Positions 19,935-57,162 of a stretch of 59,565 nucleotides of DNA are shown one piece after another (the stretch's first letter is position 1; every line of letters starts with the position of its first letter). The stretch is from Candidatus Woesearchaeota archaeon. GTDB taxonomy: Archaea > Nanobdellota > Nanobdellia > Pacearchaeales > UBA284. Location of the stretch: positions 1 to 59,565 of the forward strand of contig CAYUCT010000003.1 of NCBI GenBank assembly GCA_964443565.1. Direction: 5' to 3'. The notes under the pieces were generated by a model. The model saw nothing but the letters and a program-made list of their open reading frames with translations, was not told the DNA's origin and did no database searches. The translations under genes were made by a program, and so were the position numbers.

Positions 19935-21092
19935 TTATCTCTTTAAATATTCATTAAGAAGTTTTTCTTTATATTGCTCTTTTTTTGTCTGATAAACATT
20001 CTTAAGATACTTTTTCATATTTATCATCGATTCTGCTTCTTTCTTAAATCTTTCTGAATAATATAGGATGTCATTAAAATAACTGGTGGTTACTGGAAGA
20101 TATTTTGGAAGTTCAGGAACATTTTCCAAATTTCTTTCATTATAAATCCAATTTCCTGCATGATAGTTCATTATAGTTAAATATAAATTTCCATCAAATT
20201 TGTTAAATGCATCAATATCTTTTTTTATTCCAATTTCTAAACCTCTTGTAGTAAATCTTTCATCAAATTTTTTTAAATTTTCTTCTAATTGTTCTTTGTT
20301 TTTAGAACGTTTTTTTATTTGACTAATGGAATCTTTTAATTCTTCAATATATCTTCCCATGTAGAAATTCATAGAATCTTTATTCTCTTTATATCCTTTT
20401 TGAAAATCTTTTATTTCCACAGAAAAATAATCCCAACCATCTAAATTTTTTGTATTATTAAATTGTTTTTTAAAATAGGTTACTGCTTTAGAATTCAATC
20501 TTTCAGATTCTTGCGAAAATTCTCTTCCTTTAAAATAATCTTTTGTTTTAAAAACTTTTAATCCATATCCTTCTGCAGTTTCGGGCATTAATTGTATCAT
20601 TCCTGCTGCACCAACATTTGAAATAGCATATCTACTAAATTCGCTTTCACAATAAATTTGTGCTAAAATTGTAAAAGGGGAAATCCTTAAATTTTCAGAG
20701 TTGGGTATAGACGGTTTATTATTTTTATATGGGTGGCTATATTTATTATAATTTTTTATTAATGTAGAAACAATTTTTTCTTTTATTTCTTTATCTATAC
20801 TATAAGACAAAAATCCTTCAATCATTGCTAATTCTTCGGCATACTCTTCTATTTCTTTTAATTTATTCCCATCAACAATTTCATTTAAAGAATTATTTTT
20901 TAAATAATTTTCTCTTTTGATTAATTCTTGTTCTAAATTCAAATAATCTTGATACCATCCAGAAACTTCTTCTTCTTTTATTTTCTTTAATGATTTATCT
21001 TCTAGAGCAAAGTTATTATCAAAATTACAACTAAAAGCACCAACTAAACTACCAAATAATAAAGATTTAATTAAAACGTTTTTTATTTTCAT
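19935..21092 (-). CDS. SLT-domain lytic transglycosylase-like protein (secreted)
   Basis: YCESEFS (catalytic E-S) and AAGMIQLMPETA are SLT motifs. An N-terminal signal or lipobox-like segment is present (SLVGAFSC). Confidence 0.75.
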   Translation of the reverse strand: MKIKNVLIKSLLFGSLVGAFSCNFDNNFALEDKSLKKIKEEEVSGWYQDYLNLEQELIKRENYLKNNSLNEIVDGNKLKEIEEYAEELAMIEGFLSYSIDKEIKEKIVSTLIKNYNKYSHPYKNNKPSIPNSENLRISPFTILAQIYCESEFSRYAISNVGAAGMIQLMPETAEGYGLKVFKTKDYFKGREFSQESERLNSKAVTYFKKQFNNTKNLDGWDYFSVEIKDFQKGYKENKDSMNFYMGRYIEELKDSISQIKKRSKNKEQLEENLKKFDERFTTRGLEIGIKKDIDAFNKFDGNLYLTIMNYHAGNWIYNERNLENVPELPKYLPVTTSYFNDILYYSERFKKEAESMINMKKYLKNVYQTKKEQYKEKLLNEYLKR

Positions 21093-27829: not shown

Positions 27830-27965
27830 TTATACTTCGTTCTCCTTTTTATTAGATAATCTTAACTCTTTTTAAATAATATATTCAGCAAAATTACTTT
27901 TATAAGGTTTTTCTTTTACATTTACGAGGAGAAAAACTTTTAAGATAACCAATTGAAGCATTATT

Positions 27966-28514
27966 TTAATCTGTTGTCTTCTCAGCTAAATTTTTATTTT
28001 TATACTTAGGATTTTCAGTAACATCTAATCCTAATGGTTTAATCAAATTTGCTTCTTTTATTGAAGGAACCTCAATTTCTAGAACAATTAAATCTCTATC
28101 TGTGTAAACATCAATTTCAGATTTATAATTTTTATAAGGCAAACATAATCTAATTTTTTCAATACGCCTGCTTTTAGTTTTATTCCAAAATTTATTAAAA
28201 TCTCTTTTATCAAGTTCAATTTCTAATTCATTTCGAGAAAGAGTTCCTTCTCCTTTAACTGTAAAATAAAAATTATTTCCTTTTTTTCTAAGTCTTGCTT
28301 CAACTGGATTAAAATTTATTTTTTCTTTAAATTTACTTGAAAATTCCGGGATATAATTCAAAGATAAATATCCCTCTTGAATGGGTGTTCCATTAATCAG
28401 AACAATTTTTTTTAATTGATTTAAAGAATTTCCATAAAAAGAAATAAATTCCTTAGTGATATAATCTTTTTTATTTTCCCTCAAAAGAAATTTTTTTTCA
28501 ATTTCTTTTCCCAT
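27966..28514 (-). CDS. CYTH-domain protein (triphosphate tunnel metalloenzyme)
   Basis: N-terminal EIEKKFLL (ExExK) and later EIE motifs. 182 aa. Confidence 0.75.
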   Translation of the reverse strand: MGKEIEKKFLLRENKKDYITKEFISFYGNSLNQLKKIVLINGTPIQEGYLSLNYIPEFSSKFKEKINFNPVEARLRKKGNNFYFTVKGEGTLSRNELEIELDKRDFNKFWNKTKSRRIEKIRLCLPYKNYKSEIDVYTDRDLIVLEIEVPSIKEANLIKPLGLDVTENPKYKNKNLAEKTTD

Positions 28515-28586
28515 AAAATTTAAAGATTTTATATTCTTTATATACCTTTCTTTAAATTTACCAATATAATCTTTAATTCTAGAAAC

Positions 28587-29327
28587 CTATCTAAGCATCA
28601 AAACCAATCCCCCTCGTCCTTCTCTTGTTGATGCTTGTCTATGAGATATTTGATATCCCCTCTTCTTTTCAGATAATTTAGAAAGATTATATGTATTAAC
28701 ATTTAGATCTTTAATATTCAATGGATTTATTCCAATTTTAATTAAATCTCTTAAAATCATTTGTTTTAAATCAATAAAATAAAATCCGTCTTTCTTTGTA
28801 ATAGACTCTAATAGGGTTGCTCTTTTTAATTTTAAAGTTTTATATTTAAAATTTTCTGGGAAAATATATGGGGAAAAACCGATTTGTGTTTTGGATAAAT
28901 TATTATTTATAGAAAAAATTTTAAAAAATTTTTTAAGTATATTTTTGTCCAATGTTTTTAATGTTGCATGAACTAAACCGATTTCTTTATCTCCAACCAC
29001 CATTAATTGTGGACAATCGCCAAAACCTGTAAATAATGGAATATTTCGCATCCCGGTTATTACTCCATCATATCCATTACATTTACTAACTTGACCAGTA
29101 TATCCCGAATGTGAAAGATCCTTAAGGTATAAGATCTTTGTTTCAAAAGAATTTGCAATTACAACCCGATTATTAAAATATCTCTGAATTTTTAAATTTT
29201 TGAATAATTCTTTTTGATTTTTAATAGCATCGTTAGAATATTTAAGAAAATAATTTTTTTGAGGAATTGAAATATCAATTGTATCTAGAACATTTTGTTT
29301 AAACTTATAACTATAATATTCTCGCAT
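28587..29327 (-). CDS. Possible YfiH/DUF152 (laccase-domain/PgeF-like) protein
   Basis: GFGDCPQLMV...GLVHA resembles the Cys/His motifs of that family. The match is weak. Confidence 0.4.
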   Translation of the reverse strand: MREYYSYKFKQNVLDTIDISIPQKNYFLKYSNDAIKNQKELFKNLKIQRYFNNRVVIANSFETKILYLKDLSHSGYTGQVSKCNGYDGVITGMRNIPLFTGFGDCPQLMVVGDKEIGLVHATLKTLDKNILKKFFKIFSINNNLSKTQIGFSPYIFPENFKYKTLKLKRATLLESITKKDGFYFIDLKQMILRDLIKIGINPLNIKDLNVNTYNLSKLSEKKRGYQISHRQASTREGRGGLVLMLR

Positions 29328-29553
29328 TTACAAAAAAATGAATAATTGTTTATAAGTATTGTGCTTCCGAGAAATAAACTTCCCTTAAGCCCGATGTTAT
29401 ATTCAATAATTTCAGGGGCTAACGAAGGGGGTAATTTCCAAAAACGAAAACGAGAACGAAAAACGATGAACAAGGGAAGGGGCGATGAACTGAAAATTTT
29501 TGCAAAAGATTTAAAAACTTGGAAATATAAATCTTTTTAAGAGGTAAAATAAA

Positions 29554-30294
29554 ATGATTTGGATTTATGCAATTGGTTTGATTATCTTTCTAGCAATTTT
29601 TGGAATAAGAATACTTTATCAATATGAGCGAGGAGTTGTATTTACATTTGGAAGATTTAGTCATGTTAAAGAACCCGGTTTGAAATGGATTATTCCTATA
29701 ATTCAAACAATGAGAAAAGTCGATATTCGAATAAAGACTGCAGATGTTCCAAGACAAGAAGTTATAACTAAAGACAATATACCTCTTTTAGCAAATACTG
29801 TCGTTTATTTTAGAGTTGAGAAACCTGCTGATGCTATAATAAAAATAGAAGATTATGAGTTTGCAGTTAAACAGTATACCCAAGCAGCTTTAAGAGATGT
29901 TGTGGGAAATGCTGAATTAGATTTTGTATTAACAGAAAGAGAGAAAATAGCGGAAAGCATAAAAAAAATAGTTGATGATGAAACAGGTGGATGGGGAATA
30001 AATATAGAATCAATTAAAATTCAAGAAGTTGAATTACCTGCAGAAATGAAGAGAGCAATGGCTAAACAGGCAGAAGCTGAAAGAGAAAAAAGGGCAGTTA
30101 TAATTGCGGCAGAAGGAGAAATAAAAGCATCAGAAAACCTTAGAAAAGCTGCTGAAAATCTTTCTAAAAGTCCAGCCGCAATTCATTTAAGGACACTTCA
30201 AACTATTAGAGATATTGCAGCAGACCCATCTGAAAAGATTGTTTTATTCTTACCTTCTGATATTTCTGACATTGTTAAAAAATACTCAAAATAA
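29554..30294 (+). CDS. SPFH/band-7 (stomatin-like) membrane protein
   Basis: N-terminal TM segment, YERGVVFTFGR, and an Ala/Glu-rich coiled tail (AMAKQAEAEREKRA). Confidence 0.9.
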   Translation: MIWIYAIGLIIFLAIFGIRILYQYERGVVFTFGRFSHVKEPGLKWIIPIIQTMRKVDIRIKTADVPRQEVITKDNIPLLANTVVYFRVEKPADAIIKIEDYEFAVKQYTQAALRDVVGNAELDFVLTEREKIAESIKKIVDDETGGWGINIESIKIQEVELPAEMKRAMAKQAEAEREKRAVIIAAEGEIKASENLRKAAENLSKSPAAIHLRTLQTIRDIAADPSEKIVLFLPSDISDIVKKYSK

Positions 30295-30296
30295 AA

Positions 30297-30962
30297 ATGT
30301 TAGACAGAAAAAAAAGGTATTTGCAAATTGCATTTAATTCTGATTTGAATTCAGTTGAGAGTATTTTGCCAAATATTAAAGAAAATGAAAGAATTTTTAT
30401 TGAAGCTGGAACTCCGTTTATTAAAAAAGAGGGAATGAAAGGTATAGAAAGAATTTCTCAATTATGGAAGGGGGTTATAGTTGCAGATATAAAAACTTCT
30501 GATGGAGCAATTGGCGAAATTCAGATGATTAAAAATTCTGGAGCCAGTGCTGCGACTGTTCTTGGAAGTGCTCCCATTGAAACTTTAAACTTATTTATTA
30601 AAGAATGTAAAAAATTAGAAATTTATTCTATGATCGATATGATTGGTATAGAAGAGCCATTAAAGATTGTAAGAGAGTTAAGATTACCTCCAGATGTGGT
30701 TATACTTCATAAAGGAAGAGATGAGGAAAGCACGAAAGGCAAAGTTATTGGCTACAAAAATGTAAACAAGATAAGAAGTAAATATAATGTTTTAATTTCG
30801 GCTGCTGGGGGAGTTGATTTAAAAGAAGCGAGGAGTGCTATTTTTAATGGAGCAAATATTGTAGTTGCTAATCTTGTTGTTGAAGGACAACCTTGGAAGG
30901 GAATAAACGAGGGCGAGGATGTTGCTAAAATGGCTGAAGAATTTTTGAAAACAATAGAATAA
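30297..30962 (+). CDS. 3-hexulose-6-phosphate synthase-like (OMP decarboxylase superfamily)
   Basis: LQIAFN...IEAGTPFIKKEG...VADIKTSD resembles the HPS pattern. Confidence 0.6.
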   Translation: MLDRKKRYLQIAFNSDLNSVESILPNIKENERIFIEAGTPFIKKEGMKGIERISQLWKGVIVADIKTSDGAIGEIQMIKNSGASAATVLGSAPIETLNLFIKECKKLEIYSMIDMIGIEEPLKIVRELRLPPDVVILHKGRDEESTKGKVIGYKNVNKIRSKYNVLISAAGGVDLKEARSAIFNGANIVVANLVVEGQPWKGINEGEDVAKMAEEFLKTIE

Positions 30963-31098
30963 AAAAACTACTGTCCCCGATTCTCAGAGAGAAATAAGTA
31001 AAATAATAACAATAAAAGCCTCCCCACCTCGTACTCGCTTTGCTCGTGCGAGAACACACGAAACAAAAAGAATATTTATAAAAGAGTTACTTCATTAT

Positions 31099-31653
31099 AT
31101 GGCATACATGTTAAACAATACAAAAAATGAGGCAGGCTTAAAAATTTTATTGACTGCGATACAATTCTTTATAAGTTACGTTAAATATTTTTTTTTAACA
31201 GGATCAGTAATTTTTTCTTTAACTGTTCTGTTATTTATTATTTTGAATATTAACCCAAACTTCTCTTTTAATTTTCTTCAATATTTCTCATTTATTAACC
31301 CCCTCTATAAAACAGGGTCTTTCAGTATGGGTATAAAAGAAATAATGCAAATATTTTCAGCAGTGGCTTTTATTTTATTTGTTATTATAACTCTAATAAA
31401 ATTTACCTTGAAAAAGATATTTGGATTTAATATATCTCTTTCATTAAAATTAAAGAGTATCTTATTTTTTGTAGCCATTACTTTAGCCTACATTTTTGCT
31501 TCGGTAATTGTTGCATTTAGTGATAATTTAGATAAAGGTTTTTATCTTGTATTCATTGTTTTTTACTTTATTAATCTTGCTTCAGCCACAGGGTATTTTT
31601 TTTTAGATGCTTTGTTAAACGAAATTTCTCAAATTTATAAAAAAGAACCATAA
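31099..31653 (+). CDS. Integral membrane protein, hypothetical
   Basis: Four or five hydrophobic segments. Confidence 0.45.
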   Translation: MAYMLNNTKNEAGLKILLTAIQFFISYVKYFFLTGSVIFSLTVLLFIILNINPNFSFNFLQYFSFINPLYKTGSFSMGIKEIMQIFSAVAFILFVIITLIKFTLKKIFGFNISLSLKLKSILFFVAITLAYIFASVIVAFSDNLDKGFYLVFIVFYFINLASATGYFFLDALLNEISQIYKKEP

Positions 31654-31758
31654 ATCTAGTAATTTAATCTTGTTGATAGAAAAATTGTCCCTTGATATTT
31701 ATTCTTGATGGCTCATTGTGTTCGCTTGATTGAATACACTCCTAAAATTACTTTGATT

Positions 31759-31810
31759 CGCTCAAAAACTTTCAGTTTTTGGCGCCCAGAAAATCTTTGA
31801 TTTTCTTGGG
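31759..31810. repeat. Two adjacent hairpins of the hairpin-array family
   Basis: GCTCAAAAACT-ttc-AGTTTTTGGCG and CCCAGAAAATC-ttt-GATTTTCTTGGG. These are the same hairpin types as in copies A and E. Confidence 0.5.
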
Positions 31811-31903
31811 TTTTTCCTTCGGTATCGTTGCACTAAAAATCAATCCTATCGGAGAGTTTAATAAGGATTAAGTTCGTGCCTTAACTTTTTAGTACAACCT
31901 TTT

Positions 31904-33397
31904 TTATTCATTTCCTTTTTGTTTTTTTGAATATTCTTTTTCCCAATAAGGATCTTCAATTTCCTTAAGTTTTTCATCAAATTTGATTAATTCTTTATGG
32001 TAACCCTTATCTTTTAATGCCTTTTTAGCAGATTCATCTTCTGGAATAACATTGCATTTTTTTGCAATTTTGACAAATGTTTTATGATGATCCCGAATAA
32101 AACAAGGTCTTAATATATTTCCTAGTTTTCCATTCTGATTAAAATATTCTCCTTGCCATTGTCTTCCTTTAACAAAGAAATCAGAAAACAAAGCATCTGC
32201 TATTTTTTTTCCTTCAGAAAACAATTGGTTTACATTATGTTTGTAATATGGGACAAAAACACAGGGCATAATGTTGCCTTTCCAATCTATGTAAAAATAA
32301 CCTCCTGATCTTCCACATGATATACAACCGTCTGAGAGTATTGAGCTATTCCAAAAGTCTGCTACAAACCATTCTTTTTCACTAATCACTTGTTTCCATT
32401 TCTTAAACAATTCAAACCTTTGTTCAGGAGTAATCATTAATTTTGTTGTGAATTTTCTACCAATGGGCATATACTGGAACATCCACATATATGTAGCTCC
32501 TAATTTGTCAAAATAAAATTTATAAAATTCATCGGTTAACAAGATATTAACATTATTCTTTGTTGCGGTTACAGATGTTCCAAAAGGTACGCCAGCATTT
32601 CTTAGATTTTTCATTGCTTTTAATATTCGTTTATGAATCCCTTTTCCCCTTCGATCATCTGTTTCTTTTTCTAAACCTTCAATTGAAATAGCAGGAGTTA
32701 TGTTTCCAAGTTCTGCCATTTCCTTAGCAATTGATTCTGTGATTAATGTTCCATTTGTGTATATCAAAAAAAAACTATCTTTCCATTTTTTAGGTAAATC
32801 TAAAATTGTTTTTCCTTCACTATGATACATTAATGGCTCTCCACCAGAAATAACAAAAAATCTCATTCCCATTTCATCGTGCAATTCAGTCATTATTTTA
32901 TCAATTGTGCTCCAATTTAATGATTCAGCCGTCCTTGCTGTTGAAGAAGCATAACACCCTGTGCAATTTAAATTACACTTTTTAGTTGGACTAAGTGTAA
33001 TAAATGAAGGAGGGAATATACCATATTTTTTCTTAAATTTTAACATTACTTCTTCTTTATTATTCCCCCCAAACATAGCCGATTCAACTAAAGTCTCAAT
33101 AATTCTTTTTGTTGCTCTTTTAGAAATAAAACCTTTATCTAAATTTTTAAGAACAGAAAGATACATTGCTTTTACTCCATTAAATTTATCCAATCGTGCA
33201 TTTTTAGAAAATAATGGATCATTTGTTTTGACCATTCGTTTATAAAGAATTTTTTCAAATTGCTTAGCAGCAATATTTCTTGTTAATTTATTGCTTACAA
33301 TTGTTTTTGTTAAACTTGAAATTATTTTTTCTTTACTTAATTCCATTTTCATTTCTCTTTTTTTCATTTTATAAGTTCTTCCTCCTTCTAAGATCAT
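31904..33397 (-). CDS. Radical SAM enzyme with a C-terminal auxiliary-cluster (twitch/SPASM-like) region
   Basis: CNLNCTGC (Cx3Cx2C), VISGGEPL, and CISCGRSGGYFYIDWKGNIMPC (Gx4C). The start may be the internal Met at 33367. Confidence 0.8.
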   Translation of the reverse strand: MILEGGRTYKMKKREMKMELSKEKIISSLTKTIVSNKLTRNIAAKQFEKILYKRMVKTNDPLFSKNARLDKFNGVKAMYLSVLKNLDKGFISKRATKRIIETLVESAMFGGNNKEEVMLKFKKKYGIFPPSFITLSPTKKCNLNCTGCYASSTARTAESLNWSTIDKIMTELHDEMGMRFFVISGGEPLMYHSEGKTILDLPKKWKDSFFLIYTNGTLITESIAKEMAELGNITPAISIEGLEKETDDRRGKGIHKRILKAMKNLRNAGVPFGTSVTATKNNVNILLTDEFYKFYFDKLGATYMWMFQYMPIGRKFTTKLMITPEQRFELFKKWKQVISEKEWFVADFWNSSILSDGCISCGRSGGYFYIDWKGNIMPCVFVPYYKHNVNQLFSEGKKIADALFSDFFVKGRQWQGEYFNQNGKLGNILRPCFIRDHHKTFVKIAKKCNVIPEDESAKKALKDKGYHKELIKFDEKLKEIEDPYWEKEYSKKQKGNE

Positions 33398-33654
33398 TAA
33401 TAACTATTGCCTTTCCTTTTTTAACTTAAGTATTCCATTTTTATCTTTTAGTAAAAAGTAAAAATTCTTATTTAAATATTTTGGTTTTTTATTTCTTCTT
33501 ATCTTTCGGGTATTTACTTTTGCTTTTAGTGAGGGAGAAAAATTTCTTTTAATTGTAATCTTAGTAGAAATTTTTGATAATATCTAAAAGTTAGAGTTAA
33601 AACAAAAGAATAGGAAATAATATTTTTTTACCGCTCAATAGTAGAAATGCATTC

Positions 33655-33801
33655 TTACTTTTTTTTAGAAGTCTTTTTCTTTTTAGCTAATTTTTTAAGT
33701 TTTTCAACTTTACTTTGTTTGGTTCTTTTTCTAGGAGACCTGCCTTGATTTTTAACAGATTTCTTTTTCACTTTCTTTTTTGTTTGTTTTTTCTTCGCCA
33801 T
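33655..33801 (-). CDS. Lys-rich basic micro-protein (48 aa), hypothetical
   Basis: MAKKKQTKKK...KKKTSKKK. The longer ORF-track start (33852) runs into the G+C-rich island, so I chose the internal ATG. Confidence 0.35.
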   Translation of the reverse strand: MAKKKQTKKKVKKKSVKNQGRSPRKRTKQSKVEKLKKLAKKKKTSKKK

Positions 33802-33814
33802 TTTTATAATTATT

Positions 33815-34015
33815 AAAGGGCTCGGTGGGGAAGTGCCACAAACAAAGACCAATTCAATCTTAACCTATCAGTTTGTTTTAATGGTTATCTTCCTCGTGCT
33901 GTAAAGAAGCTTAAAGAGTACAGATTTCATATGGTGAGTTATAGCCCTTCCACCATATTAATAGCCGAATACTCAACAGAGGCTTAACAGTCACATCCTT
34001 TTCAAGGACAACCGA
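33815..34015. ncRNA. G+C-enriched structured island: candidate ncRNA or cis-regulatory leader, identity unknown
   Basis: Minus-strand reading gives GUCCUU-GAAA-AGGAU and AUAUGGUG-(14 nt)-CACCAUAU hairpins nested within GAGUA/UACUC and CUGU..AAGC/GCUU..ACAG helices. The loop AAGGGCU is complementary to AGCCCUU just upstream of the micro-ORF start. Confidence 0.3.
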
Positions 34016-34101
34016 TAATTATTAAAATATCTTCTTCTATTTAAATATATGTATTAACTTTATAATAGTTAAACTTAGAGTATGAAAGAGAAAAAGCAAG
34101 C

Positions 34102-34172
34102 GTCTCTCTAATATCTATCTCCCTTTAAAATATTATTTCATCTTTTTTTAAAAAAATAAGCAAAGAATAACG
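34102..34172 (+). promoter_or_regulatory. 71-bp conserved upstream element, copy 1
   Basis: Matches 36936-37006 at 70/71 nt. Contains the T7A7 palindrome TTTTTTTAAAAAAA. It ends 65 nt before ATG 34238, and a TATA-like TTTATAAAT lies at 34209-34217. Confidence 0.8.
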
Positions 34173-34237
34173 CACACCTAAATAATTATAAACTCAACCA
34201 CAACAAAGTTTATAAATATTAATTGTATTCCTTTTTT

Positions 34238-34468
34238 ATGGAATATAAAACTAAAATTGATTCAGAGAACTATAAACATATTATCCCTCTCTTTAGTGCT
34301 CTTGATTCGTCATATGAAGAAGGGAGCAGAGTGCATTCATCTTGTGAAAAACCTTGTGTTTGCGTATGTGTTTGTAGACATGGAAAGGCTTCTTCAATGG
34401 ATTTTTCAAAAAAGAAAGATCTTGAAAAAAATATAGAAGAACTCTTTGAAAAAGTTCTGGCAGCATAA
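34238..34468 (+). CDS. Cys-rich small ORF, candidate precursor peptide A
   Basis: MEYKTK...SYEEGSRVHSSCEKPCVCVCVCRHG.... I chose ATG 34238 because its spacing to the upstream element matches module 2. Confidence 0.4.
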   Translation: MEYKTKIDSENYKHIIPLFSALDSSYEEGSRVHSSCEKPCVCVCVCRHGKASSMDFSKKKDLEKNIEELFEKVLAA

Positions 34469-34499
34469 AGTTTTTATAAGACATAGAATTCTTTTCATA

Positions 34500-35549
34500 A
34501 TGGAAAAGGTTATTATAGATGATTTAATGAGGGTTTTAAATAAAAAATTGAATAGACTCATTCCTTTTAACAAAAGATTTGATGTTTTTCTACAAAAAGG
34601 AGGGGTTGGATGTTATGATATTAAAAGATGGGCAGTATTTGTTCCAGATTCTTTTGATAATTATATGAAAATTCATACAATTTTACATGAAGGAGCACAT
34701 TTAATCCTAAGAGAGAAAATATCAAACTTAATCTCGTCAAAAAAATTTGATAGACTCAAATGGTCTATGGAACCTTTTTTTATAGAAAATTCTATTTTTT
34801 CTTTAGACGAAGCTTTTGCAGAAATGGTTACAACCATAATAATGTCAGAACTTCCAGAAGATTTTTTTAAAAAGGGCATTGTTTTTGATAAATTTTCTGA
34901 ACCTTCTTATAAAGATTCTAATAAGAAATTAGATGTTTTCTTAGCAAAAATTTCAGAATGGAAAATCCCAATAACTCTTAAAAATAATAATCTTAACATA
35001 TCAAATACGCTTAATAATTTAACTTTTTTAGGACCTGAAAAAAGAATTCAAACAATTATTGATTCTTTATCTATTTTAAATGATTATAATTATGAAGGAT
35101 TTATAAAAAAAATAATGGAGGATCCCTTAAAAAATTCTCCGAGTATGAAATTATTATTAAATACCCTCCCTTTTAAAGTTAAGATAAATAAAGAAATCAA
35201 AAATTTTGACAAACAAATTTTTTTAGATTATTTAGAAACTCTTTCATGGGGGGATTATAATGAAAATTATTATGCCTATTCCGAATTTATTGATAAAAAA
35301 AATTTAAACAAAATAAAAAAACAAAAAATTCCAAAAATAAACACCAAAATTAAAGAAAGATTTTTGCAAATTTCAAAAAATTTAGGGGAGATTAGAGAGA
35401 AAATAATGTGTGCATGGGAAGCGAAGGATGAAAATAAATTAAAAAAATTAATTGAAAATTACAATTCAGAAAGGTGGAAATATAGGAAAAAAATAGACTT
35501 AAAAAATAATTTTAATGAATATGGTTTTGGAACATTCAAATGGGAATAA
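34500..35549 (+). CDS. HExxH protein, putative metallopeptidase
   Basis: ILHEGAHLILRE followed by LDEAFAEM. I chose the start at 34500 to avoid overlap with the small ORF. Confidence 0.5.
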   Translation: MEKVIIDDLMRVLNKKLNRLIPFNKRFDVFLQKGGVGCYDIKRWAVFVPDSFDNYMKIHTILHEGAHLILREKISNLISSKKFDRLKWSMEPFFIENSIFSLDEAFAEMVTTIIMSELPEDFFKKGIVFDKFSEPSYKDSNKKLDVFLAKISEWKIPITLKNNNLNISNTLNNLTFLGPEKRIQTIIDSLSILNDYNYEGFIKKIMEDPLKNSPSMKLLLNTLPFKVKINKEIKNFDKQIFLDYLETLSWGDYNENYYAYSEFIDKKNLNKIKKQKIPKINTKIKERFLQISKNLGEIREKIMCAWEAKDENKLKKLIENYNSERWKYRKKIDLKNNFNEYGFGTFKWE

Positions 35550-36667
35550 AAGAAAAATATAATCTTAAACAGATTAATGAAAAGTTTTTAATAGACAAAG
35601 CCTCGATGAAAACAAGAATAGAAAAAGTTTCTTGTTTGAAAATTTCTGCACCTCTATATGCTCAATATGAAATCATAGAAAATTGCAATCAAAGATGCAT
35701 TTTTTGTTATAATGTTTGGAAAAATAGAAAGAAAAATTCCTGTAAAAAAAGAGAGTTAACATTAAAACAACAATTAAAAATTATAGACAAGTTAGCAAGA
35801 ATGAAAATTTTTGGATTGATTCTCTCTGGAGGAGAGCCCCTTATCTCAAAAAATTTATTTAAAATAATTGAAAGGGCGTCAAAAAAATATGGAATTGAAG
35901 TAAGTATTATTACAAATGGAACATTATTGACAGAAGAAGTATGCAAGAGATTGAAAGAAAACGGATTATCTGATATGCAAATATCCCTTCATAGTTTTAA
36001 AGAAAGAGATAATAACAAAATTACCGGGATGAAAAATTCTTTTGGTAGAACTGTTTCTGGGATAAGAAATGCTCTTAAATATTTTTCTCCAGAAAATATA
36101 AATATCAATATGGTTCCAACAAAAAAAACATATAACCAAGTGTATGATACAGCCAAGTTTTTAAAAAATTTGGGAGTTATCAATTTTACAGTTAGTTCTT
36201 ATGTTTATACAGGAAATAAAAAGTTAGATAAAGAATTAGCACCGACTAAAAAACAATTTTTAGAGATATATAATCAAATAGTTAAAGTGAAAAAAGAACT
36301 TTTTATGAGAACATTTATTGGGGGTTGTTATCCTCTATGTTCTCTAAAAAAGAAAATAGATGATGAAGTTATTTCTTTAATTGGAAATATCTGTGATGCA
36401 GGAGTTACTCAAATAGTCATTAGCCCAAAAGGGGATTTAAGACCTTGTGTTGCTTATGAGCATATTTTAGGGAATATACTAGAAGATGATCCTTTAAAAA
36501 TATGGAAAAATTCAAAAATTCTTAAAAAAATAAGAAGAATGGAAAATATTCCTTTAATGTGTGAAAGATGTAAACATTTAGTAATTTGTCGAGGAGGTTG
36601 TAGAGCATCGGCATATAATAAATCTAAGCGACTTGACGATATTCATCAATTAATAGAAAATGACTGA
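35540..36667 (+). CDS. Radical SAM / SPASM-domain maturase-like enzyme
   Basis: CNQRCIFC, LSGGEPL, KGDLRPC (Gx4C), CERCKHLVICRGGC (Cx2Cx5Cx3C). Confidence 0.85.
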   Translation: MGIKEKYNLKQINEKFLIDKASMKTRIEKVSCLKISAPLYAQYEIIENCNQRCIFCYNVWKNRKKNSCKKRELTLKQQLKIIDKLARMKIFGLILSGGEPLISKNLFKIIERASKKYGIEVSIITNGTLLTEEVCKRLKENGLSDMQISLHSFKERDNNKITGMKNSFGRTVSGIRNALKYFSPENININMVPTKKTYNQVYDTAKFLKNLGVINFTVSSYVYTGNKKLDKELAPTKKQFLEIYNQIVKVKKELFMRTFIGGCYPLCSLKKKIDDEVISLIGNICDAGVTQIVISPKGDLRPCVAYEHILGNILEDDPLKIWKNSKILKKIRRMENIPLMCERCKHLVICRGGCRASAYNKSKRLDDIHQLIEND

Positions 36668-36929
36668 ATATATTTTATTTAAGCATCCCGATTTAAAAAT
36701 TAGAAAAGAAAAATTTGGAGGAATAATAAAAACTGTAAGAGGATTATTTTTAATAGACAAAAAAGCATATTGTTTGTTAAAGAAGATTGACAATAAAAAA
36801 ACATATTCGGAATTAACTGAAGAGAATGAATCAAAGAAAGTAATTGAAGATTTATTAAAACTTAAAATAATTTTAAAAATCGAAGTAGGGAGAGCTGAAA
36901 GAGTAAAAAATCTCAAAGATAAAAATTAA
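36660..36929 (+). CDS. PqqD-like small protein (putative RiPP recognition element)
   Basis: 89 aa. KFGGIIKTVRGLFLIDKKAYCLLKKIDNKKTYSEL resembles the PqqD family pattern. It overlaps the rSAM stop by 8 nt. Confidence 0.55.
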   Translation: MTEYILFKHPDLKIRKEKFGGIIKTVRGLFLIDKKAYCLLKKIDNKKTYSELTEENESKKVIEDLLKLKIILKIEVGRAERVKNLKDKN

Positions 36930-36935
36930 GTGTGT

Positions 36936-37006
36936 GTCTCTCTAATATCTATCTCCCTTAAAAATATTATTTCATCTTTTTTTAAAAAAATAAGCAAAGA
37001 ATAACG
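36936..37006 (+). promoter_or_regulatory. 71-bp conserved upstream element, copy 2
   Basis: Matches 34102-34172 at 70/71 nt. It ends 64 nt before ATG 37071. Confidence 0.8.
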
Positions 37007-37070
37007 ATTATGCATTAACTAAAAAGTTACAATTCAAAAACCTTAAATAGTTTTATATCTTTTAAAAATT

Positions 37071-37544
37071 ATGAAAGAAAATGACTCTAAACCAATTTAT
37101 AGGGAATTAAAATCTCCAGTTACAGCTCAAATGGCTTTGACTTACGGATGCAATAATTTATGTAGGTATTGTTATAATTCTACAAGGGGATTAGAAAATC
37201 AAGATACGGGAATGTCCATAGAAAATTCCATGAAAATAGCAAAACAGATTGTTGATAGTGAAATTTTTGAAGTTGTTCTAACAGGAGGGGAGCCATTGTT
37301 GAGAAGAGATTTATTATATCCTTTAGCAAAATATTTTTCCCAAAAAAAGACCGATGTTAAAATGGAAACCTTAGAAAAAAAGGCAGAAGATGTAGGAAAA
37401 GCATCTCTTAGAGATATCCGAGCTATGTCTATCAAGATACCTGCATACAATGCAAAAAGCGAAGAAAGCAGATTCAGTATTTATGACATGGCAGAGTATT
37501 CTTGTGATGCTGCATGCGACAATTGTCATTGTGCAACTTACTAA
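37071..37544 (+). CDS. Radical-SAM N-terminal fragment fused in frame to a Cys-rich peptide (candidate precursor B)
   Basis: CNNLCRYC and VVLTGGEPLL, then the homology stops near the A7 run at 37342-37348. An internal Met at 37362 begins a 60-aa peptide ending EYSCDAACDNCHCATY. Confidence 0.5.
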   Translation: MKENDSKPIYRELKSPVTAQMALTYGCNNLCRYCYNSTRGLENQDTGMSIENSMKIAKQIVDSEIFEVVLTGGEPLLRRDLLYPLAKYFSQKKTDVKMETLEKKAEDVGKASLRDIRAMSIKIPAYNAKSEESRFSIYDMAEYSCDAACDNCHCATY

Positions 37545-37550
37545 TTCAAA

Positions 37551-38210
37551 ATGCCAATACACTATGGAAATATGCTTACTTTGAAGTATAAAGATTTAAT
37601 TAGTGATAAGTTTAATTCTCTAATAAAATTTTTTGATTTTGAACCAGGAGATGTTTTTATAGAGATTTTGCCATTGGAAATGTTTGAAAGATTTTCCGAA
37701 TTGGAAAGAGGTAAAAAACCAGAATTTTTTGTTGTTGGTTCTGCTCTAAATAATGGAAGAGTTATCATCTTAGATAAAAAAGATTTTGAAAAAAAAGAGC
37801 ATAAAGCAGAAGAATTTGAAAGAGTAATTCTGCATGAATTGGCACATATGTTTATAAGAAGAATTCTTTGGCCAAAACAAACATTTCCCTGGATTGAGGA
37901 AGGAATTTGCGAGTATTTATCTTTTGGAGATTATCCATTAAAAGTAAAAAAATTTGTGAATTTTAAAAATTTAGAAAAAAAAGAGGACTGGAACAAACAC
38001 TATGCTTATCAACAGTCAAGGGAATTTTTTAAATTTTTAATTAAAAAATTTGGAAATAAAAAAATTGCAGATTTTATTAAAAAAATAAAAGAAAAATCAG
38101 AAGAAGAAAGTTTTAAAGAGGTGTTTGGAAAAGAACTAAATGAATTAGAAGAAGAATTCAAATCCTCTTTAAAAAATGAAAAAATTATGCCATCCAGGAA
38201 CGCCTTGTAA
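37551..38210 (+). CDS. Peptidase-MA-like HExxH protein
   Basis: ILHELAHMFIRR ... WIEEGICEYL (HExxH plus a downstream Glu; Peptidase_MA_2-like). Confidence 0.6.
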   Translation: MPIHYGNMLTLKYKDLISDKFNSLIKFFDFEPGDVFIEILPLEMFERFSELERGKKPEFFVVGSALNNGRVIILDKKDFEKKEHKAEEFERVILHELAHMFIRRILWPKQTFPWIEEGICEYLSFGDYPLKVKKFVNFKNLEKKEDWNKHYAYQQSREFFKFLIKKFGNKKIADFIKKIKEKSEEESFKEVFGKELNELEEEFKSSLKNEKIMPSRNAL

Positions 38211-39306
38211 AATCAATAATTATAGAGATTTAGATATTTCTATATTAAAAGAAGAATACAAGGAATTAGTTAATTGTTCAGATGGTTGGGCAATTTTTGG
38301 AAGAGATTCATTTTGGATAAGTAATGAAGAATTTTCAAAGATAAATTTATCAGATAATTTTAAAATATTCAAAGTTGATAGTTTTAGATTAAATGGTTGG
38401 GGGTTTTATTCTCCGATAAGTTTAGAAATTGAATTAACAAAAAAATGTAATCAAAAATGTATTCATTGCTGGAATGAGTCAGGAAATGGGTCAGTAATTA
38501 GATTGGAAAAACTCGAAGAAATTGTTGATGAATTTAGAGAGAAAGGTGGGCAGAATTTAAAATTGACTGGAGGAGAACCCTTTCTGCATCCTTCTTTTTT
38601 TAATTTTGTAGAATATTCAAAAGAAAAAGGAGTTAGGAATATTGAAATCACAACAAATGGAAGTTTAATTAACGAGGACAATGTTAAATTTTTATCAAAA
38701 TATATTAATCAATTAAATATAAGCTTGCATGGTGCAACTGAAGAAACCCATAATAAAATTACAAGAAGCCAAAATTATCAAATAGTAAGGAAAGCTATTT
38801 CATTATGTAATGATTATGGATTAAGTCCTATAATAAATTTTACAATTATGGGAAAGAACAAATCTGAAATAGAAGCAATGTTTAAATTATTCCAAAATTC
38901 AAAAAATAGGATAAGATTTAATTTACTTATGCAAAGAGGTTCTGGAGAAAAATTGGAAGACATTTCTGCAGAAATTTTTAAATTAAGAAAAGAAATAAGA
39001 TATTTTGGTTCATTGTATTCGGTAGAATTAGAAAAAAGTGGGTTGTATCCTCAAGGATATAATAAAGAAGTAGAAAGTTCTAAATTTTATGGTTGTAGTG
39101 CATTAAGAACGGGAATGTATCTTTCTTCAGAAGGATTAGTTTTTCCTTGTAATTTAGCAACCAATCCTATAGGAAATATCTATGAGAATTCTATTTCTGA
39201 CATCTGGAGAAGTGAAAATGCTAAAAAAATTAGAGAAATTATTTTATGTGAGAAATATTCTTGTGGTGTTTCTTGTGGTGGAAGATGTAAAGCAAAAGAA
39301 ATATAA
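38176..39306 (+). CDS. Radical SAM / SPASM-like enzyme with an ~85-aa N-terminal extension
   Basis: CNQKCIHC, LTGGEPF, EGLVFPC (Gx4C), CEKYSCGVSCGGRC. Confidence 0.85.
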   Translation: MKKLCHPGTPCKINNYRDLDISILKEEYKELVNCSDGWAIFGRDSFWISNEEFSKINLSDNFKIFKVDSFRLNGWGFYSPISLEIELTKKCNQKCIHCWNESGNGSVIRLEKLEEIVDEFREKGGQNLKLTGGEPFLHPSFFNFVEYSKEKGVRNIEITTNGSLINEDNVKFLSKYINQLNISLHGATEETHNKITRSQNYQIVRKAISLCNDYGLSPIINFTIMGKNKSEIEAMFKLFQNSKNRIRFNLLMQRGSGEKLEDISAEIFKLRKEIRYFGSLYSVELEKSGLYPQGYNKEVESSKFYGCSALRTGMYLSSEGLVFPCNLATNPIGNIYENSISDIWRSENAKKIREIILCEKYSCGVSCGGRCKAKEI

Positions 39307-39501
39307 TTTTCGCGAAGCGAACTATCTGTTCCGAAGGACCGGCGCGTGCATAAAATTTAATGGAATTGCTAAAATCTTACCTAAACTAAGAGAGATTTTA
39401 AAATTATTAAGAAGAGAATTAAAATTTTTTAATCGCGATGTTCAATGCAATAATTTTTAGTGGCTAAATGCAGAAGGGGGGTGATTAAAAAAATAGAAAT
39501 T

Positions 39502-39900
39502 TTAATTAATTAAAAATTCTGGAGATTTTTGAATCATTTTGTTATATTGTTCATCTGGAACAGTTCTATCAATATAATACTGTGAATCAATTCTTGCTTT
39601 TAATGAATGTTCAAGAAATATTAATTCTGTTTCGTCAAAATATTCAGTTAAAAATCTTTTTGCAAATTCAATGGTACAAGAATGAACTTCACATTTTATC
39701 CCTATTTTCATTAATAAAGCATAAAGTGAAAAATAAATAGTATAATAGGCTGTTGAAATTTTCCAATCTTTGATATTATTCACCCTCATAGATTCAAGAG
39801 CATCTTCTGCTTTTTTGATGTAGGCATTGGCTAAATTTGGATTGGAATTAATTAATTTTAATCCTTCTTTTTTTTCAATACACCATTTAATTTTATCCAT
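39502..39900 (-). CDS. HEPN-domain protein (partner of the adjacent nucleotidyltransferase)
   Basis: All-helical, about 130 aa, with ARIDSQYY near the C-terminus. With the internal start MDKIKW it overlaps the upstream MNT gene by 8 nt. Confidence 0.55.
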   Translation of the reverse strand: MDKIKWCIEKKEGLKLINSNPNLANAYIKKAEDALESMRVNNIKDWKISTAYYTIYFSLYALLMKIGIKCEVHSCTIEFAKRFLTEYFDETELIFLEHSLKARIDSQYYIDRTVPDEQYNKMIQKSPEFLIN

Positions 39901-40483
39901 CTTTAAAAATTGTTTGTATAAATTTTTCCGCATTACAAAAGATTATATGGTCTTTTAGAATTTCTTTTAAAAAAATGTCTTTATTAATATTTTTCTCAAA
40001 ATTTTTTATAGGATAACATTTAATGTTTATTTCTATATTCCAATTTTTTGAGATTTTTTCTATCTCTTTTTGATTATAACTCCCCGCAATAAAAATATCT
40101 AAATCTGAATTTTCTCTTTCTAATCCCTTAACATAGCTCCCAAATATAACCCCTATTCCATTAATCTGGGGGGATATTTTTTCTATAATCTCTTTAATCA
40201 AAAGTTTTTTTTCTAAAAAGGTTAATGTTTTATATTGTTCTGCAAAAATAAGATATCTTTTAGTAAACTCGCTTGGATTTAGTTTAAATGTTCTAATTTT
40301 TCCTCTAATCTTTGATTCTATAACCCCCTTATCTTCTAAATTTTCAAGAATAAGTTGTGCGGTTCTTGGACTTATCTTTAATAATCTTTGAACTTCTCGA
40401 ATATAGTATTCTCTATTAAAATCATAAGTGAATAGGGATAAAACCTGTAATGTATTTTCAGTTATGTTAATTTTTTTATACAT
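39893..40483 (-). CDS. wHTH plus minimal nucleotidyltransferase (MNT) domain protein
   Basis: GSYVKG...NSDLDIF (GS...DxD) follows an N-terminal winged-helix-like segment. Confidence 0.65.
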   Translation of the reverse strand: MYKKINITENTLQVLSLFTYDFNREYYIREVQRLLKISPRTAQLILENLEDKGVIESKIRGKIRTFKLNPSEFTKRYLIFAEQYKTLTFLEKKLLIKEIIEKISPQINGIGVIFGSYVKGLERENSDLDIFIAGSYNQKEIEKISKNWNIEINIKCYPIKNFEKNINKDIFLKEILKDHIIFCNAEKFIQTIFKDG

Positions 40484-40530
40484 ATGTATTATTAATAATA
40501 CCGTAATATATAAATCTTTTTATCAGAAGT

Positions 40531-40958
40531 TTATTCTTCATTAGTTATACTTATAAAAAATCTTAGAGGTTTATTCTTGCCATAATATCGATAGTAACTT
40601 GGTTTCTTTTTTAATTTTTGAATAAGTCGCTCTTTTATTATATTTTTATCTCGAATATTTGGTTTCCAATCATTAATTAGTGGTTTGTTAAATTTTTGAA
40701 GGTTTATTTTTTATTAGTTTTGAAACCACGATTTTGCATCTCTTTTTTTATTAATTCATGTCTTCTTTTTAAATATAATAACTTATTTTTAAAAAATTTA
40801 ATATGCCCTTCTCCAAAACAATATTTTTTCGGAATTTCTTCTAATTTTAAGATGGAATATTTTTTTACATATCCCAATAACATTAAAATTTCATCATATT
40901 CTGCAATCAAATGTTGGTCTGATAAATATCTTGGATTAATTAGATTTATTCTTACCAT
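40531..40958 (-). pseudogene. denV: T4 endonuclease V (DenV)-like pyrimidine-dimer DNA glycosylase, interrupted by a frameshift in an A6 run
   Basis: N-terminal part MVRINLINPRYLSDQHLIAEYDEI (40704-40958). The C-terminal part ...ERLIQKLKKKPSYYRYYGKN is in another frame (40531-40707) and matches the T4 endoV C-terminus RPTWYKYYGK. Confidence 0.65.
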
Positions 40959-40995
40959 CTTATTATGCTATATGTTTAATTAAATTTAATAAAAT

Positions 40996-41328
40996 TTAAT
41001 ATCCTTTCTCTTTTTTAAATTTATAAAATTCTTCGGGAATAATATATTTATCTTTGTTTAAATCAACCGATTCCAACATTTTTTCTATTGGGAGATTTAC
41101 ATTATCTTCAATAGTAATTCGTGCCATTAAACCAAGAACATTTGTATAGATGTCTGCATATATTTTTATTCCTGCTTCTTTTTTCCATTTGCTTTGATTT
41201 TTATAATCCTCTGGTTTTATAATTTCATAAGTGGGTGTTTTAGCACAAGAAAAAAGAATACTTGAAAATAAAATCCCAATTAATCCGATTTCTTTTATTT
41301 TTCTTTTAATTGATTTGTTTATATCCAT
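40996..41328 (-). CDS. Small secreted or lipoprotein-like protein with an EF-hand-like loop
   Basis: Signal plus Cys (LFSC). DLNKDKYIIPEE fits DxNxDxxxxxxE. Confidence 0.4.
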   Translation of the reverse strand: MDINKSIKRKIKEIGLIGILFSSILFSCAKTPTYEIIKPEDYKNQSKWKKEAGIKIYADIYTNVLGLMARITIEDNVNLPIEKMLESVDLNKDKYIIPEEFYKFKKEKGY

Positions 41329-41449
41329 TTTGTCTAATAAATGTTGTTTGAAGTTTATTCAAAGCCACCTAAAGTCTATTTAGATAGTGATTTAAATATC
41401 TTATGTTTGAAATGAAAATGCTTAAATATACCCAAAATTTATTTTAATT

Positions 41450-42349
41450 ATGTATAGAAAGCGAAGGGGAAACTATTTTGAATCTCAATCAGGAGATGAT
41501 GTAGGTATTTTAAATAATTATTTATACCAAATAAAGAAATATCCAGTATTAAGTGAAAAAGATCAAAGAGAAAATTTTAAATTATTAAAACAAGGAAATT
41601 TAAAAATAAAAGAGAAAATTTTTAATTCTAATTTAAGATTGGTTATAAGTGTTGCAAAAAATTATTTTGCTAAATATCCTGCCTCTCGAATGGATATAAT
41701 TCAAGAAGGAAATTTAGGTTTAATGCGTTCTATAGAATCTTTTGATTTATCTAAAAAAACAAGGTTTTCAACATATGCATATTTTTGGATTGAACAAAGA
41801 ATAAGAAAATATTTGGAGACCGATGGAACTTTAATTGCCTTGCCCCATAATTTGAATTTTGAAATAAAAAAATTTGAAAAGGAAAAACAAAATTTTTTTA
41901 AATTTACTGGGAGAGACGATTCTTTAGAACATCTTGCAAATACATTCAATGAAAAAGAAGAAACCATTAGGAAAACACTTGAAAAAAGAGTAGAAATATT
42001 TTCTTTAGATGCCCCCATCAATGAATTTGAAGAGGATTCTTCTTTAATGATAGATCATTTAGAATATGGGGAATTAGATTCTCCGGAAAAAAAGGTTTAT
42101 AAAGAAAAAATTAAAAAATTAATGCTTAAAAAAATTTCTTCTCTTCCCCGCAAATCTCAAGAAATTGTGTTATTACGATTTGGTCTTAAAGATGGATATG
42201 AAAGAACATTAAAAGAAGTAGGTGAAATTTTTGATTTAACCAGGGAAAGAGTGAGACAAATAATAGATAAGAGTTTAGAATTAATAAAAGAAGATAAAAA
42301 TTTTATTGATGAATTAAAGAACTTATGTAATAAACAAGAATTGAAATAA
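41450..42349 (+). CDS. Sigma-70 family RNA polymerase sigma factor (bacterial type)
   Basis: Region 2: DIIQEGNLGLMRSIESFD...FSTYAYFWIEQRIRKYL. Region 4.2: TLKEVGEIFDLTRERVRQIIDKSL. Confidence 0.85.
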   Translation: MYRKRRGNYFESQSGDDVGILNNYLYQIKKYPVLSEKDQRENFKLLKQGNLKIKEKIFNSNLRLVISVAKNYFAKYPASRMDIIQEGNLGLMRSIESFDLSKKTRFSTYAYFWIEQRIRKYLETDGTLIALPHNLNFEIKKFEKEKQNFFKFTGRDDSLEHLANTFNEKEETIRKTLEKRVEIFSLDAPINEFEEDSSLMIDHLEYGELDSPEKKVYKEKIKKLMLKKISSLPRKSQEIVLLRFGLKDGYERTLKEVGEIFDLTRERVRQIIDKSLELIKEDKNFIDELKNLCNKQELK

Positions 42350-42439
42350 TTTAGCGGTTTTTAAATATTTTATTGTATTATATAAAAATAAATTTAAATA
42401 ATAAAAATTAAAAAAGAAAAATAAAATTTTAATCTTTAT

Positions 42440-42754
42440 CTATTTCTTTGCAACTTTTTCTTCTTTCAAAACTTTTTTAGCAATTATAAATACAACCAAT
42501 GCAATAATCACAAAATTTATTGCTTCTGCTAAAAATGCTCCCCATTTCAATACGATTGGACCAAGAGTTAAGACTGCTTCTCTCCACGCCCCTCCTGGAA
42601 TAAATGGAGTTATTACTGGCATGATAATATTGTCTACTAAAGATTTAATCAAAGAAGTTGAAGCAACTCCTATGATGAATGCAATTGCTAAAGCAATTAC
42701 ATTATATTCTTTCAAAAACTGTAAAAAATCTTTTATCATAAAAAAATAAGACAT
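42440..42754 (-). CDS. mscL: Large-conductance mechanosensitive channel MscL
   Basis: KDFLQFLKEYNVIALAIAFIIG...LVDNIIMP matches the MscL pattern. The start may be 42739. Confidence 0.85.
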   Translation of the reverse strand: MSYFFMIKDFLQFLKEYNVIALAIAFIIGVASTSLIKSLVDNIIMPVITPFIPGGAWREAVLTLGPIVLKWGAFLAEAINFVIIALVVFIIAKKVLKEEKVAKK

Positions 42755-42819
42755 CTTGCTTTTTTAAATATTTTTAAAATATTGTTAAAATTTATAAAAG
42801 AAGAAATATTAAAAGACTT

Positions 42820-43365
42820 ATGAAACTAATAAACTCAAATAATGGGTTAATCTTTTTTATTTTTATAGCATTACTTGTTTTTGGAAATTTTTCTTTTGTT
42901 CTATCTCAAGAAACAGATTGTCCATTTGGAAAAATAAATGATACCTATCCCGGGGATTGTAGGTTATATACTGATGAAAATCAAGACGGAATTTGTGATT
43001 TATCTCAAGATATTCAACAAAATGAAAATACATTAAACAATTCAAATATTTTTCAAGAAAAATATCCCTTCTTATCTATCTTCTTTTTGTTAGTTTTGCT
43101 TTATATTTTAACCACAATATTATCAAAGAAGGAAAAAATTTCGCATGTCTTACACAAAAAGATATGGAACATTCTCTTAACATTAAGTTTTTTAGTTTGT
43201 GCAATTAGTTCAGTAATTTACATTTTAAATTTAAATTATGGAATATTTCAATTAAATCAAAATATTTCATTTGTCCATATTGAATCTGGAATAATTATGA
43301 TAATAATCTCTATTTTTCATATAATTTGGCACATATTCTATTATAAGAATATATTTAAGCATTAA
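42820..43365 (+). CDS. Membrane protein with an N-terminal Cys motif
   Basis: CPFGKINDTYPGDCRLYTDENQDGICD followed by three or four TM helices. Confidence 0.45.
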   Translation: MKLINSNNGLIFFIFIALLVFGNFSFVLSQETDCPFGKINDTYPGDCRLYTDENQDGICDLSQDIQQNENTLNNSNIFQEKYPFLSIFFLLVLLYILTTILSKKEKISHVLHKKIWNILLTLSFLVCAISSVIYILNLNYGIFQLNQNISFVHIESGIIMIIISIFHIIWHIFYYKNIFKH

Positions 43366-57009: not shown

Positions 57010-57162
57010 TTTTTCCTCTTTTTTAATCAAGCAAAAATAAATCAATATAAAACAAATATAAAACCCATATCTTAATTATTAATAAAATAGTATAATATAT
57101 TATGCTTATAAATATTATCTCTTTCAAGAAAGATATTTAAATTAAAATTGTTCTCTTTAAGT

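Follow-up and report, generated by a model that had tools for sequence, protein, structure and literature searches.

The 299-residue protein encoded at 41450-42349 of the window (the whole stretch of DNA analysed here, which is one complete 59.6-kb contig of a 609,593-bp genome in 44 contigs) belongs to the sigma-70 family. Our results strongly indicate that its gene is of bacterial origin and is now part of the chromosome of a Pacearchaeota-type DPANN archaeon, that it is held by purifying selection and that it evolves fast and is accessory rather than housekeeping. As to its role, we tentatively favour, at a probability of roughly 40%, a regulator that binds DNA on its own and acts on archaeal promoters within the cell. 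The locus comprises the following features.

27900..42800, no strand: species-specific variable stretch of about 15 kb, between the SMC gene and the membrane-protein/dph/XPD genes
40520..40958, minus strand: Pyr_excise, pyrimidine-dimer DNA glycosylase gene, member of the conserved block (Pfam, 1.6e-16)
40996..41328, minus strand: 110-aa ORF, divergent from the sigma gene, with an N-terminal hydrophobic, lipobox-like segment (LFSC) and an EF-hand-like loop (DLNKDKYIIPEE)
41329..41449, no strand: divergent intergenic spacer of 121 bp between the 110-aa ORF and the sigma gene
41450..42349, plus strand: sigma-70 family gene, ATG start, 299 aa (ORF listing, Pfam, NCBIfam, AF2, Foldseek), encoding a basic disordered N-terminus (residues 1-16), region 1.2, regions 2.1-2.4, diverged regions 3.0-3.1, the region 3.2 'SLDAPI' finger and regions 4.1-4.2
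42440..42754, minus strand: MscL mechanosensitive channel gene, convergent with the sigma gene, last gene of the block and found at the same place on the related contig L034 (Pfam, 9.3e-21)

A sigma-70 family protein encoded by an archaeal genome

The original prediction had read this ORF as a sigma-70 factor with regions 2 and 4.2. Both of the motifs that it quoted were found in the ORF, and Pfam, NCBIfam and Foldseek agreed with the assignment. The Pfam model Sigma70_r2 (PF04542) scored 63.3 bits (E 1.8e-17, cut-off 24; 66.3 bits in the genome-level search) and the Sigma70_r4 helix-turn-helix (PF04545) 52.8 bits (E 2.8e-14, cut-off 24.1). Sigma70_r3 matched weakly, at 17.7 bits (E 0.004), below its cut-off of 25.3. 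Helices were present at the region 3 position in the AF2 model, which was built from a 34-row alignment and had a mean pLDDT of 85.8, with values below 50 only at residues 1-14 and averages of about 60-64 in the linker around residues 181-210. The best Foldseek matches of this model were full-length SigA and sigma-S chains from holoenzyme structures.

Placement within the family was investigated with NCBIfam. The superfamily model TIGR02937 was the only one passed (96.3 bits, cut-off 42.9). The top-scoring models were of the RpoD/SigA and RpoS types, at about 165-183 bits (E 1e-48 to 1e-54), and all equivalog cut-offs (354-800 bits) were missed by more than 190 bits. The protein could not be assigned to the group 1 primary sigmas (168-183 bits against RpoD/SigA equivalog cut-offs of 354-572) or to the group 2, RpoS-like proteins (181.5 bits against 378.7 for TIGR02394, with Sigma70_r3 below its cut-off). 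Nor is it a group 4 (ECF) protein, since ECF sigmas consist of regions 2 and 4 only, in about 170-220 aa, whereas the 299 aa found here include regions 1.2, 3 and 3.2. The defence-associated sigma model MzaA scored 165 bits, no better than the RpoD models. Pfam detected no match to PF03979 or PF00140, unlike for the bacterial matches, and in the alignment with bacterial RpoD-type proteins the protein begins 16 residues ahead of region 1.2; it thus lacks region 1.1.

In the same alignment, the region 2.2 motif DIIQEGNLGL, the region 2.3 motif FSTYAYFW, the region 3.2 finger SLDAPI and the region 4.2 recognition helix TRERVRQI were kept. We assigned these motifs by comparison with those of E. 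coli sigma-70, and take region 2.2 to be the core-binding element, region 3.2 the finger and region 4.2 the recognition helix. The residues that read the -35 element (TRERVRQI) are the same as in primary sigmas, and several of the positions that we take to read the -10 and extended -10 elements are changed (W433F, R436E, T440R, R451A and H455N in E. coli numbering). The motifs with which sigmas bind a bacterial core RNA polymerase (RNAP) are thus retained. It resembles the bacterial group 1 and 2 sigmas (RpoD/SigA and RpoS) in its domain order (1.2, 2, 3, 3.2, 4), its region 2.2 motif, the FSTYA melting motif, SLDxP and TRERVRQI, but it differs from them in its identity of at most 41% outside its own clade, the lack of region 1.1, the diverged regions 3.0-3.1, the substituted -10 contacts and the lack of a bacterial core RNAP in the cell.

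The genome (G000) was estimated to be 87.9% complete and 0.11% contaminated. Archaeal markers flank the sigma gene on both sides of the contig, namely, EF-1alpha, GatD, an ATP-dependent DNA ligase, CDC48, diphthamide synthase, an XPD-type helicase and a form-III-like RuBisCO large subunit, and the closest named relatives of the ligase are annotated as 'Candidatus Pacearchaeota archaeon'. TBP and archaeal Rpo1/Rpo2 are present, the archaeal RpoA1 model scoring 1098 bits on a single 1191-aa ORF. In the genome search, models of bacterial rpoB and rpoC matched only the archaeal operon, far below cut-off, and no anti-sigma domain of the zf-HC2 or HATPase_c_2 type was found. The sigma-70 protein is thus encoded on a contig and in a genome shown to be DPANN archaeal and not mis-binned; the earlier worry that the remainder of the genome might turn out to be bacterial did not materialize. 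Two further observations were made on this genome. Its largest RNAP subunit (G000:C14, L008:1486-5061), like that of 29 relatives, is a single ORF of about 1130-1220 aa; archaea usually split this subunit into an A'/A'' pair. Moreover, the leucyl-tRNA synthetase at 57148-59565 (plus strand) contains an editing domain (PF13603, 2e-66) that is characteristic of bacterial-type enzymes, and may be a further bacterial-derived gene on this archaeal contig.

The gene order around the sigma gene was repeated in two independent assemblies. The JGI contig L034 (2.6 kb) carries Pyr_excise, the 110-aa ORF, a 78%-identical sigma gene, MscL and the start of a membrane-protein gene that is 83% identical to positions 42820-43365 of the window. 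G001, a genome of the same genus, encodes this membrane protein next to dph and XPD, and L034 therefore crosses the right junction, from the sigma gene through MscL into a gene shared with a same-genus genome. The Logan contig that carries P0121, a sigma of 45% identity, repeats Pyr_excise, the 110-aa ORF and the sigma gene. This agreement makes mis-assembly or mis-binning very unlikely, and mis-assembly, which had been listed as one explanation of the locus, is effectively rejected. The view that the sigma gene sits in native archaeal surroundings held up, with archaeal markers on both sides, 0.11% contamination and conserved synteny.

Selection, distribution and bacterial origin

Comparison of the sigma gene with the 78%-identical L034 copy gave a dN of 0.126 and a dS of 0.507 (dN/dS 0.25); the neighbouring genes gave dN/dS values of 0.08 and, for MscL, 0.17. 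The motifs DIIQEGNLGL, FSTYA, SLDAP and TRERVRQI are still retained in the P0121 relative at 45% identity. Identity to this relative was 71% in region 4.2, 62% in the N-terminal 16 residues, 54% in regions 2.1-2.2 and 22% in regions 3.0-3.1. DIIQEGNLGL and a finger of the form SL(D/E)xP are kept in the whole clade and in most sigmas of the order. The sigma protein diverges far faster than the product of the 110-aa ORF, with identities of 78% and 45% versus 94% and 75% on the same two contigs.

The sigma gene was not found in the two same-genus genomes G001 and G002 (87% and 96% complete), in which the SMC gene (24908-27829 in the window) directly adjoins dph or XPD. The segment from 27.9 to 42.8 kb had no DNA match in either genome, and its flanks matched at 66-75%. 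Since this stretch is missing between matching flanks, the sigma block lies within a species-specific stretch of about 15 kb, which also holds a putative HEPN/nucleotidyltransferase pair, radical-SAM/SPASM cassettes, an SPFH gene and others. A Pfam scan of the ORFs with 120 aa or more gave no integrase match, and neither bounding direct repeats nor att-like repeats were found around the stretch. Across the order, Sigma70_r2 was detected in 103 of 301 genomes (31 of the 82 high-quality genomes) and in 53 of 122 genera, and many genomes hold two to four sigma copies, often as tandem pairs. Within the Pacearchaeota-type family of the window itself, only 4 of 23 other genomes were positive. As to the putative HEPN/nucleotidyltransferase pair, it consists of two overlapping genes at 39502-40483 (minus strand), 1 kb upstream of the sigma block: one encodes a nucleotidyltransferase (Polbeta/NTP_transf_2) and the other is a 143-aa ORF with no Pfam match at E 1e-5. 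This layout recalls HEPN/MNT toxin-antitoxin systems, the HEPN assignment being putative.

In two very large collections, the nearest proteins were the 78%- and 45%-identical relatives; all others were at most 41% identical, and the named hits among these were primary-type sigmas of many bacterial phyla. Trees were built with FastTree on 180 rows and with a quick IQ-TREE run on 64 rows. Both recovered the three-member clade with full support, on a long branch of 1.0-1.1 substitutions per site and outside the main archaeal cluster of 12-14 sequences. The sister of the clade was unstable, being the Thermoanaerobacter-like P0132 in one tree and P0235 plus P0154, both from contigs shorter than 2 kb, in the other. 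A phylogeny had been proposed as a way to find the donor lineage; with this long branch and unstable sister, no donor could be named from either tree, and a contig scan with the sigma protein alone returned one irrelevant Butyrivibrio locus. A further archaeal sigma (L041:1315-2205, from genome G297) nested with Saccharibacteria RpoD and its relatives (99% SH-aLRT), which suggests that it was acquired separately and more recently from CPR bacteria. This placement calls for at least two acquisitions of sigma genes in the order. Among the three explanations offered originally, horizontal acquisition with a putative new role is the best supported: promoter geometry, a dN/dS of 0.25, micro-synteny and a patchy but widespread order-wide family are those of a retained archaeal gene.

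Sigma versus TBP/TFB is a textbook divide between bacterial and archaeal transcription initiation, and 'complete sigma factors in Archaea' were reportedly mentioned by Rinke and colleagues in 2013. The premise that an archaeal sigma gene is in itself surprising proved out of date, since sigma-70 genes in DPANN were described as 'particularly prevalent in Woesearchaeota' (cluster fam00359) by Castelle et al. 2021 (PMC8204110), who excluded mis-binning, detected no anti-sigma factors and did not settle the mechanism. Similarly to those homologues, the present gene encodes regions 2 and 4 beside archaeal markers, in a genome with TBP and archaeal RNAP in which no anti-sigma factor was found, a likeness at the level of the sigma-70 domains. 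It differs from them in belonging to its own long-branch clade, together with two metagenomic relatives and outside the main archaeal cluster of the order, and in having a private 110-aa neighbour.

The conserved block and its divergent control region

The 110-aa ORF had only two homologues among 5.8 billion proteins, with 94% and 75% identity. Both lie beside members of the same sigma clade, each being the only other 110-aa product on the contigs with the 78%- and 45%-identical sigma relatives. None was detected in 300 other genomes of the order, and no Pfam family matched. The ORF is a conserved neighbour of this sigma clade only. Since just about 14 cytoplasmic residues precede its hydrophobic segment, its product is not classically anti-sigma-like. 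The survey for synteny suggested by the original prediction succeeded in part: the block is repeated on L034 and on the P0121 contig, but the other sigma loci of the order that were examined share none of the neighbouring genes of the window. The Pyr_excise gene stops after 84 aa at a run of A residues, and the other 58 aa of the 142-aa form found on L034 lie in another frame; the Pfam domain itself is complete despite the early stop. The break reflects either a frameshift or a sequencing error in the homopolymer.

At the DNA level, the spacer between the 110-aa ORF and the sigma gene is about 97% identical to that of L034, compared to 84% for the sigma coding sequence and 93% for the flanking genes. 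Conservation so far above that of the sigma coding sequence suggests a constrained control region. At 41422-41429, beginning 28 nt upstream of the ATG, the element TTAAATAT could serve as the archaeal TATA box of a leaderless mRNA. When 341 long ORFs from the genome were examined, TATA-like hexamers (TTTAAA, TTAAAT and TTTATA) peaked 27-29 nt before the ATG, which points to mostly leaderless transcripts; in the sigma gene, TTAAAT starts at -28. An ordinary archaeal TATA promoter that would drive the sigma gene as a leaderless mRNA is thus strongly indicated by the spacing of these elements. Canonical -35/-10 pairs were not in excess in the genome (509 versus 580±31 and 23 versus 41±5) or at the locus (14 versus 19.4±4.5). 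The lack of a genome-wide excess argues only against many canonical promoters.

Several other elements were observed. Genome-wide, (A)AGATTT at -32 to -35 precedes the TATA-like hexamers in the same set of 341 long ORFs. Within the spacer are the palindrome CTAAAgtctaTTTAG and, at 41345-41352 and 41404-41411, two copies of TGTTTGAA at a distance of 59 bp. It also contains a second GATTTAAAT box, with a putative 9-codon uORF 27 nt further on.

Possible roles of the sigma protein

Since the cell lacks a bacterial core RNAP, the sigma protein would most likely work inside the archaeon as a sequence-specific DNA-binding regulator. We favour this reading because the region 4.2 helix-turn-helix is the most conserved part of the protein, because region 1.1 is missing and because a conserved divergent control region is shared with the sole constant partner gene. 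In free sigma-70, region 1.1 masks DNA binding, and Dombroski and Gross reportedly found that sigma-70 fragments without region 1.1 bind promoter DNA without core. Without this auto-inhibitory region, the protein could bind TTGACA-like DNA alone and, once bound, could modulate TBP/TFB-dependent promoters. A candidate target would be its own highly conserved divergent promoter, common to the gene of the 110-aa membrane protein. However, the kept region 2.2 core-binding motif and region 3.2 finger count against a mere helix-turn-helix regulator, since these elements make sense only with an RNA polymerase, and they keep alive the readings in which the partner is an archaeal or a bacterial RNAP. 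Several of the -10-reading positions are also substituted, and a role in conflict would account equally well for the rapid evolution and for a distribution that is patchy and multi-copy.

The protein might engage an RNA polymerase, either the archaeon's own (at the clamp coiled-coil, where it would compete with TFB/TFE) or that of a bacterial partner. This appears unlikely overall; if it were the case, the protein would be a bacterial-style initiation factor that works with an archaeal-type RNAP, or a transcription effector that crosses domains. Binding to the archaeon's own RNAP might involve the Rpo1 clamp coiled-coil, which is the structural counterpart of the beta-prime clamp helices, and would let the protein act in initiation as an accessory factor alongside TFB/TFE or as an alternative to them. 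That DIIQEGNLGL and SL(D/E)xP are conserved both in this clade and in most of the order's sigmas would be difficult to understand if there were no RNAP partner, and the only RNAP in the genome is archaeal. Nevertheless, we consider this quite improbable: TBP and the archaeal RNAP are present, we know of no archaeal RNAP that uses a sigma, the gene is dispensable at the genus level, and the N-terminal halves of Rpo1 are 68-86% identical across relatives with or without a sigma gene, so that no co-adaptation is visible. A complex prediction of sigma residues 15-135 with the first 440 residues of the archaeon's own Rpo1 (both as alignments) gave a score of 0.00 in a run without controls, and counts neither way. 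Just as doubtful is an effector role, proposed originally for a bacterial partner: once delivered to such a partner, or to prey, the sigma would capture the core RNAP there as phage sigmas do. Such a protein would need the elements for working with a bacterial core, all of which are kept, and -35-reading residues that are canonical; SLT-type peptidoglycan lytic domains occur in the window and in 125 of 301 genomes of the order, and fast evolution and patchiness suit a conflict gene. The SLT gene (19935-21092, minus strand) and the GGDEF gene cited for this proposal are both real according to Pfam. The proposal gained no support, however, since no signal peptide or transmembrane segment was detected in the sigma sequence, whose N-terminus (MYRKRRGNY) is basic and disordered, and since SLT and sigma did not co-occur among the 301 genomes: SLT was found in 34 of 103 sigma-positive genomes (33%) versus 91 of 198 sigma-negative genomes (46%), an odds ratio of 0.58, uncorrected for kinship. 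Moreover, no secretion gene is linked to the locus and, to our knowledge, every cultivated DPANN host is an archaeon. Phage sigmas (SPO1 gp28, T4 gp55 and the sigma-70-like proteins of jumbo phages) are an analogy for the effector only, as cases of the sigma of one genome acting on the polymerase of another. They act in an infected bacterium after genome injection, whereas the present gene lies on a cellular archaeal chromosome, with no delivery route, signal or bacterial partner known.

A gene of conflicts or of a mobile island, acting as a regulator or decoy tied to viruses or mobile elements and not as a regulator of core functions, is rather less doubtful than these, and still on the unlikely side. 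It would account for the location in the species-specific 15-kb stretch, together with the putative HEPN/nucleotidyltransferase pair and RiPP-like cassettes, for the divergence of sigma at a much higher rate than its neighbours (as measured against the 110-aa ORF) and for the tandem and multi-copy sigmas of other genomes; the MzaA match also fits, although RpoD models equal it. Against this stand the lack of an integrase match and of att-like repeats in the scans described above, a composition that is the same as in the rest of the contig (GC of 0.236-0.237 around the sigma gene, at the low end of the contig range, and 0.24-0.34 elsewhere in the window) and the inheritance of the block with its chromosomal neighbours in a close relative. 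By far the least probable account is that of an artefact or a dead gene, that is, a mis-binned or mis-assembled bacterial fragment or the decaying remnant of a recent transfer. The absence of sigma from two same-genus genomes and the frameshifted Pyr_excise gene next to it would fit, but archaeal markers flank the gene on either side in the 59.6-kb contig, contamination is 0.11%, an independent assembly spans sigma, MscL and the common membrane-protein gene, the ORF is intact with a dN/dS of 0.25 and motifs kept at 45% identity, and the promoter is of the archaeal type.

A selected sigma in cells with only an archaeal polymerase is a functional puzzle, which this locus does not solve. With sigmas in DPANN already in print, the locus adds a distinct small clade that has its own block and belongs to a Pacearchaeota-type lineage in which sigmas are seldom encountered. 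It also offers a clean test case for studies of DNA binding, RNAP pull-down and in vitro transcription, namely, a single-copy 299-aa sigma without region 1.1 and with fully canonical -35-reading residues, a putative leaderless archaeal promoter, a near-invariant 121-bp control region and one private neighbour.

Two observations concern other genomes of the order. SLT domains, which are common there and not associated with sigma, often lie inside giant ORFs of 2000-3000 aa. At three loci of the main archaeal cluster (L043:788-1132, L046:867-1202 and L060:874-1167), a protein of 97-114 aa with predicted transmembrane segments is encoded directly upstream of the sigma gene on the same strand, and these proteins are possibly membrane partners of the three sigmas.
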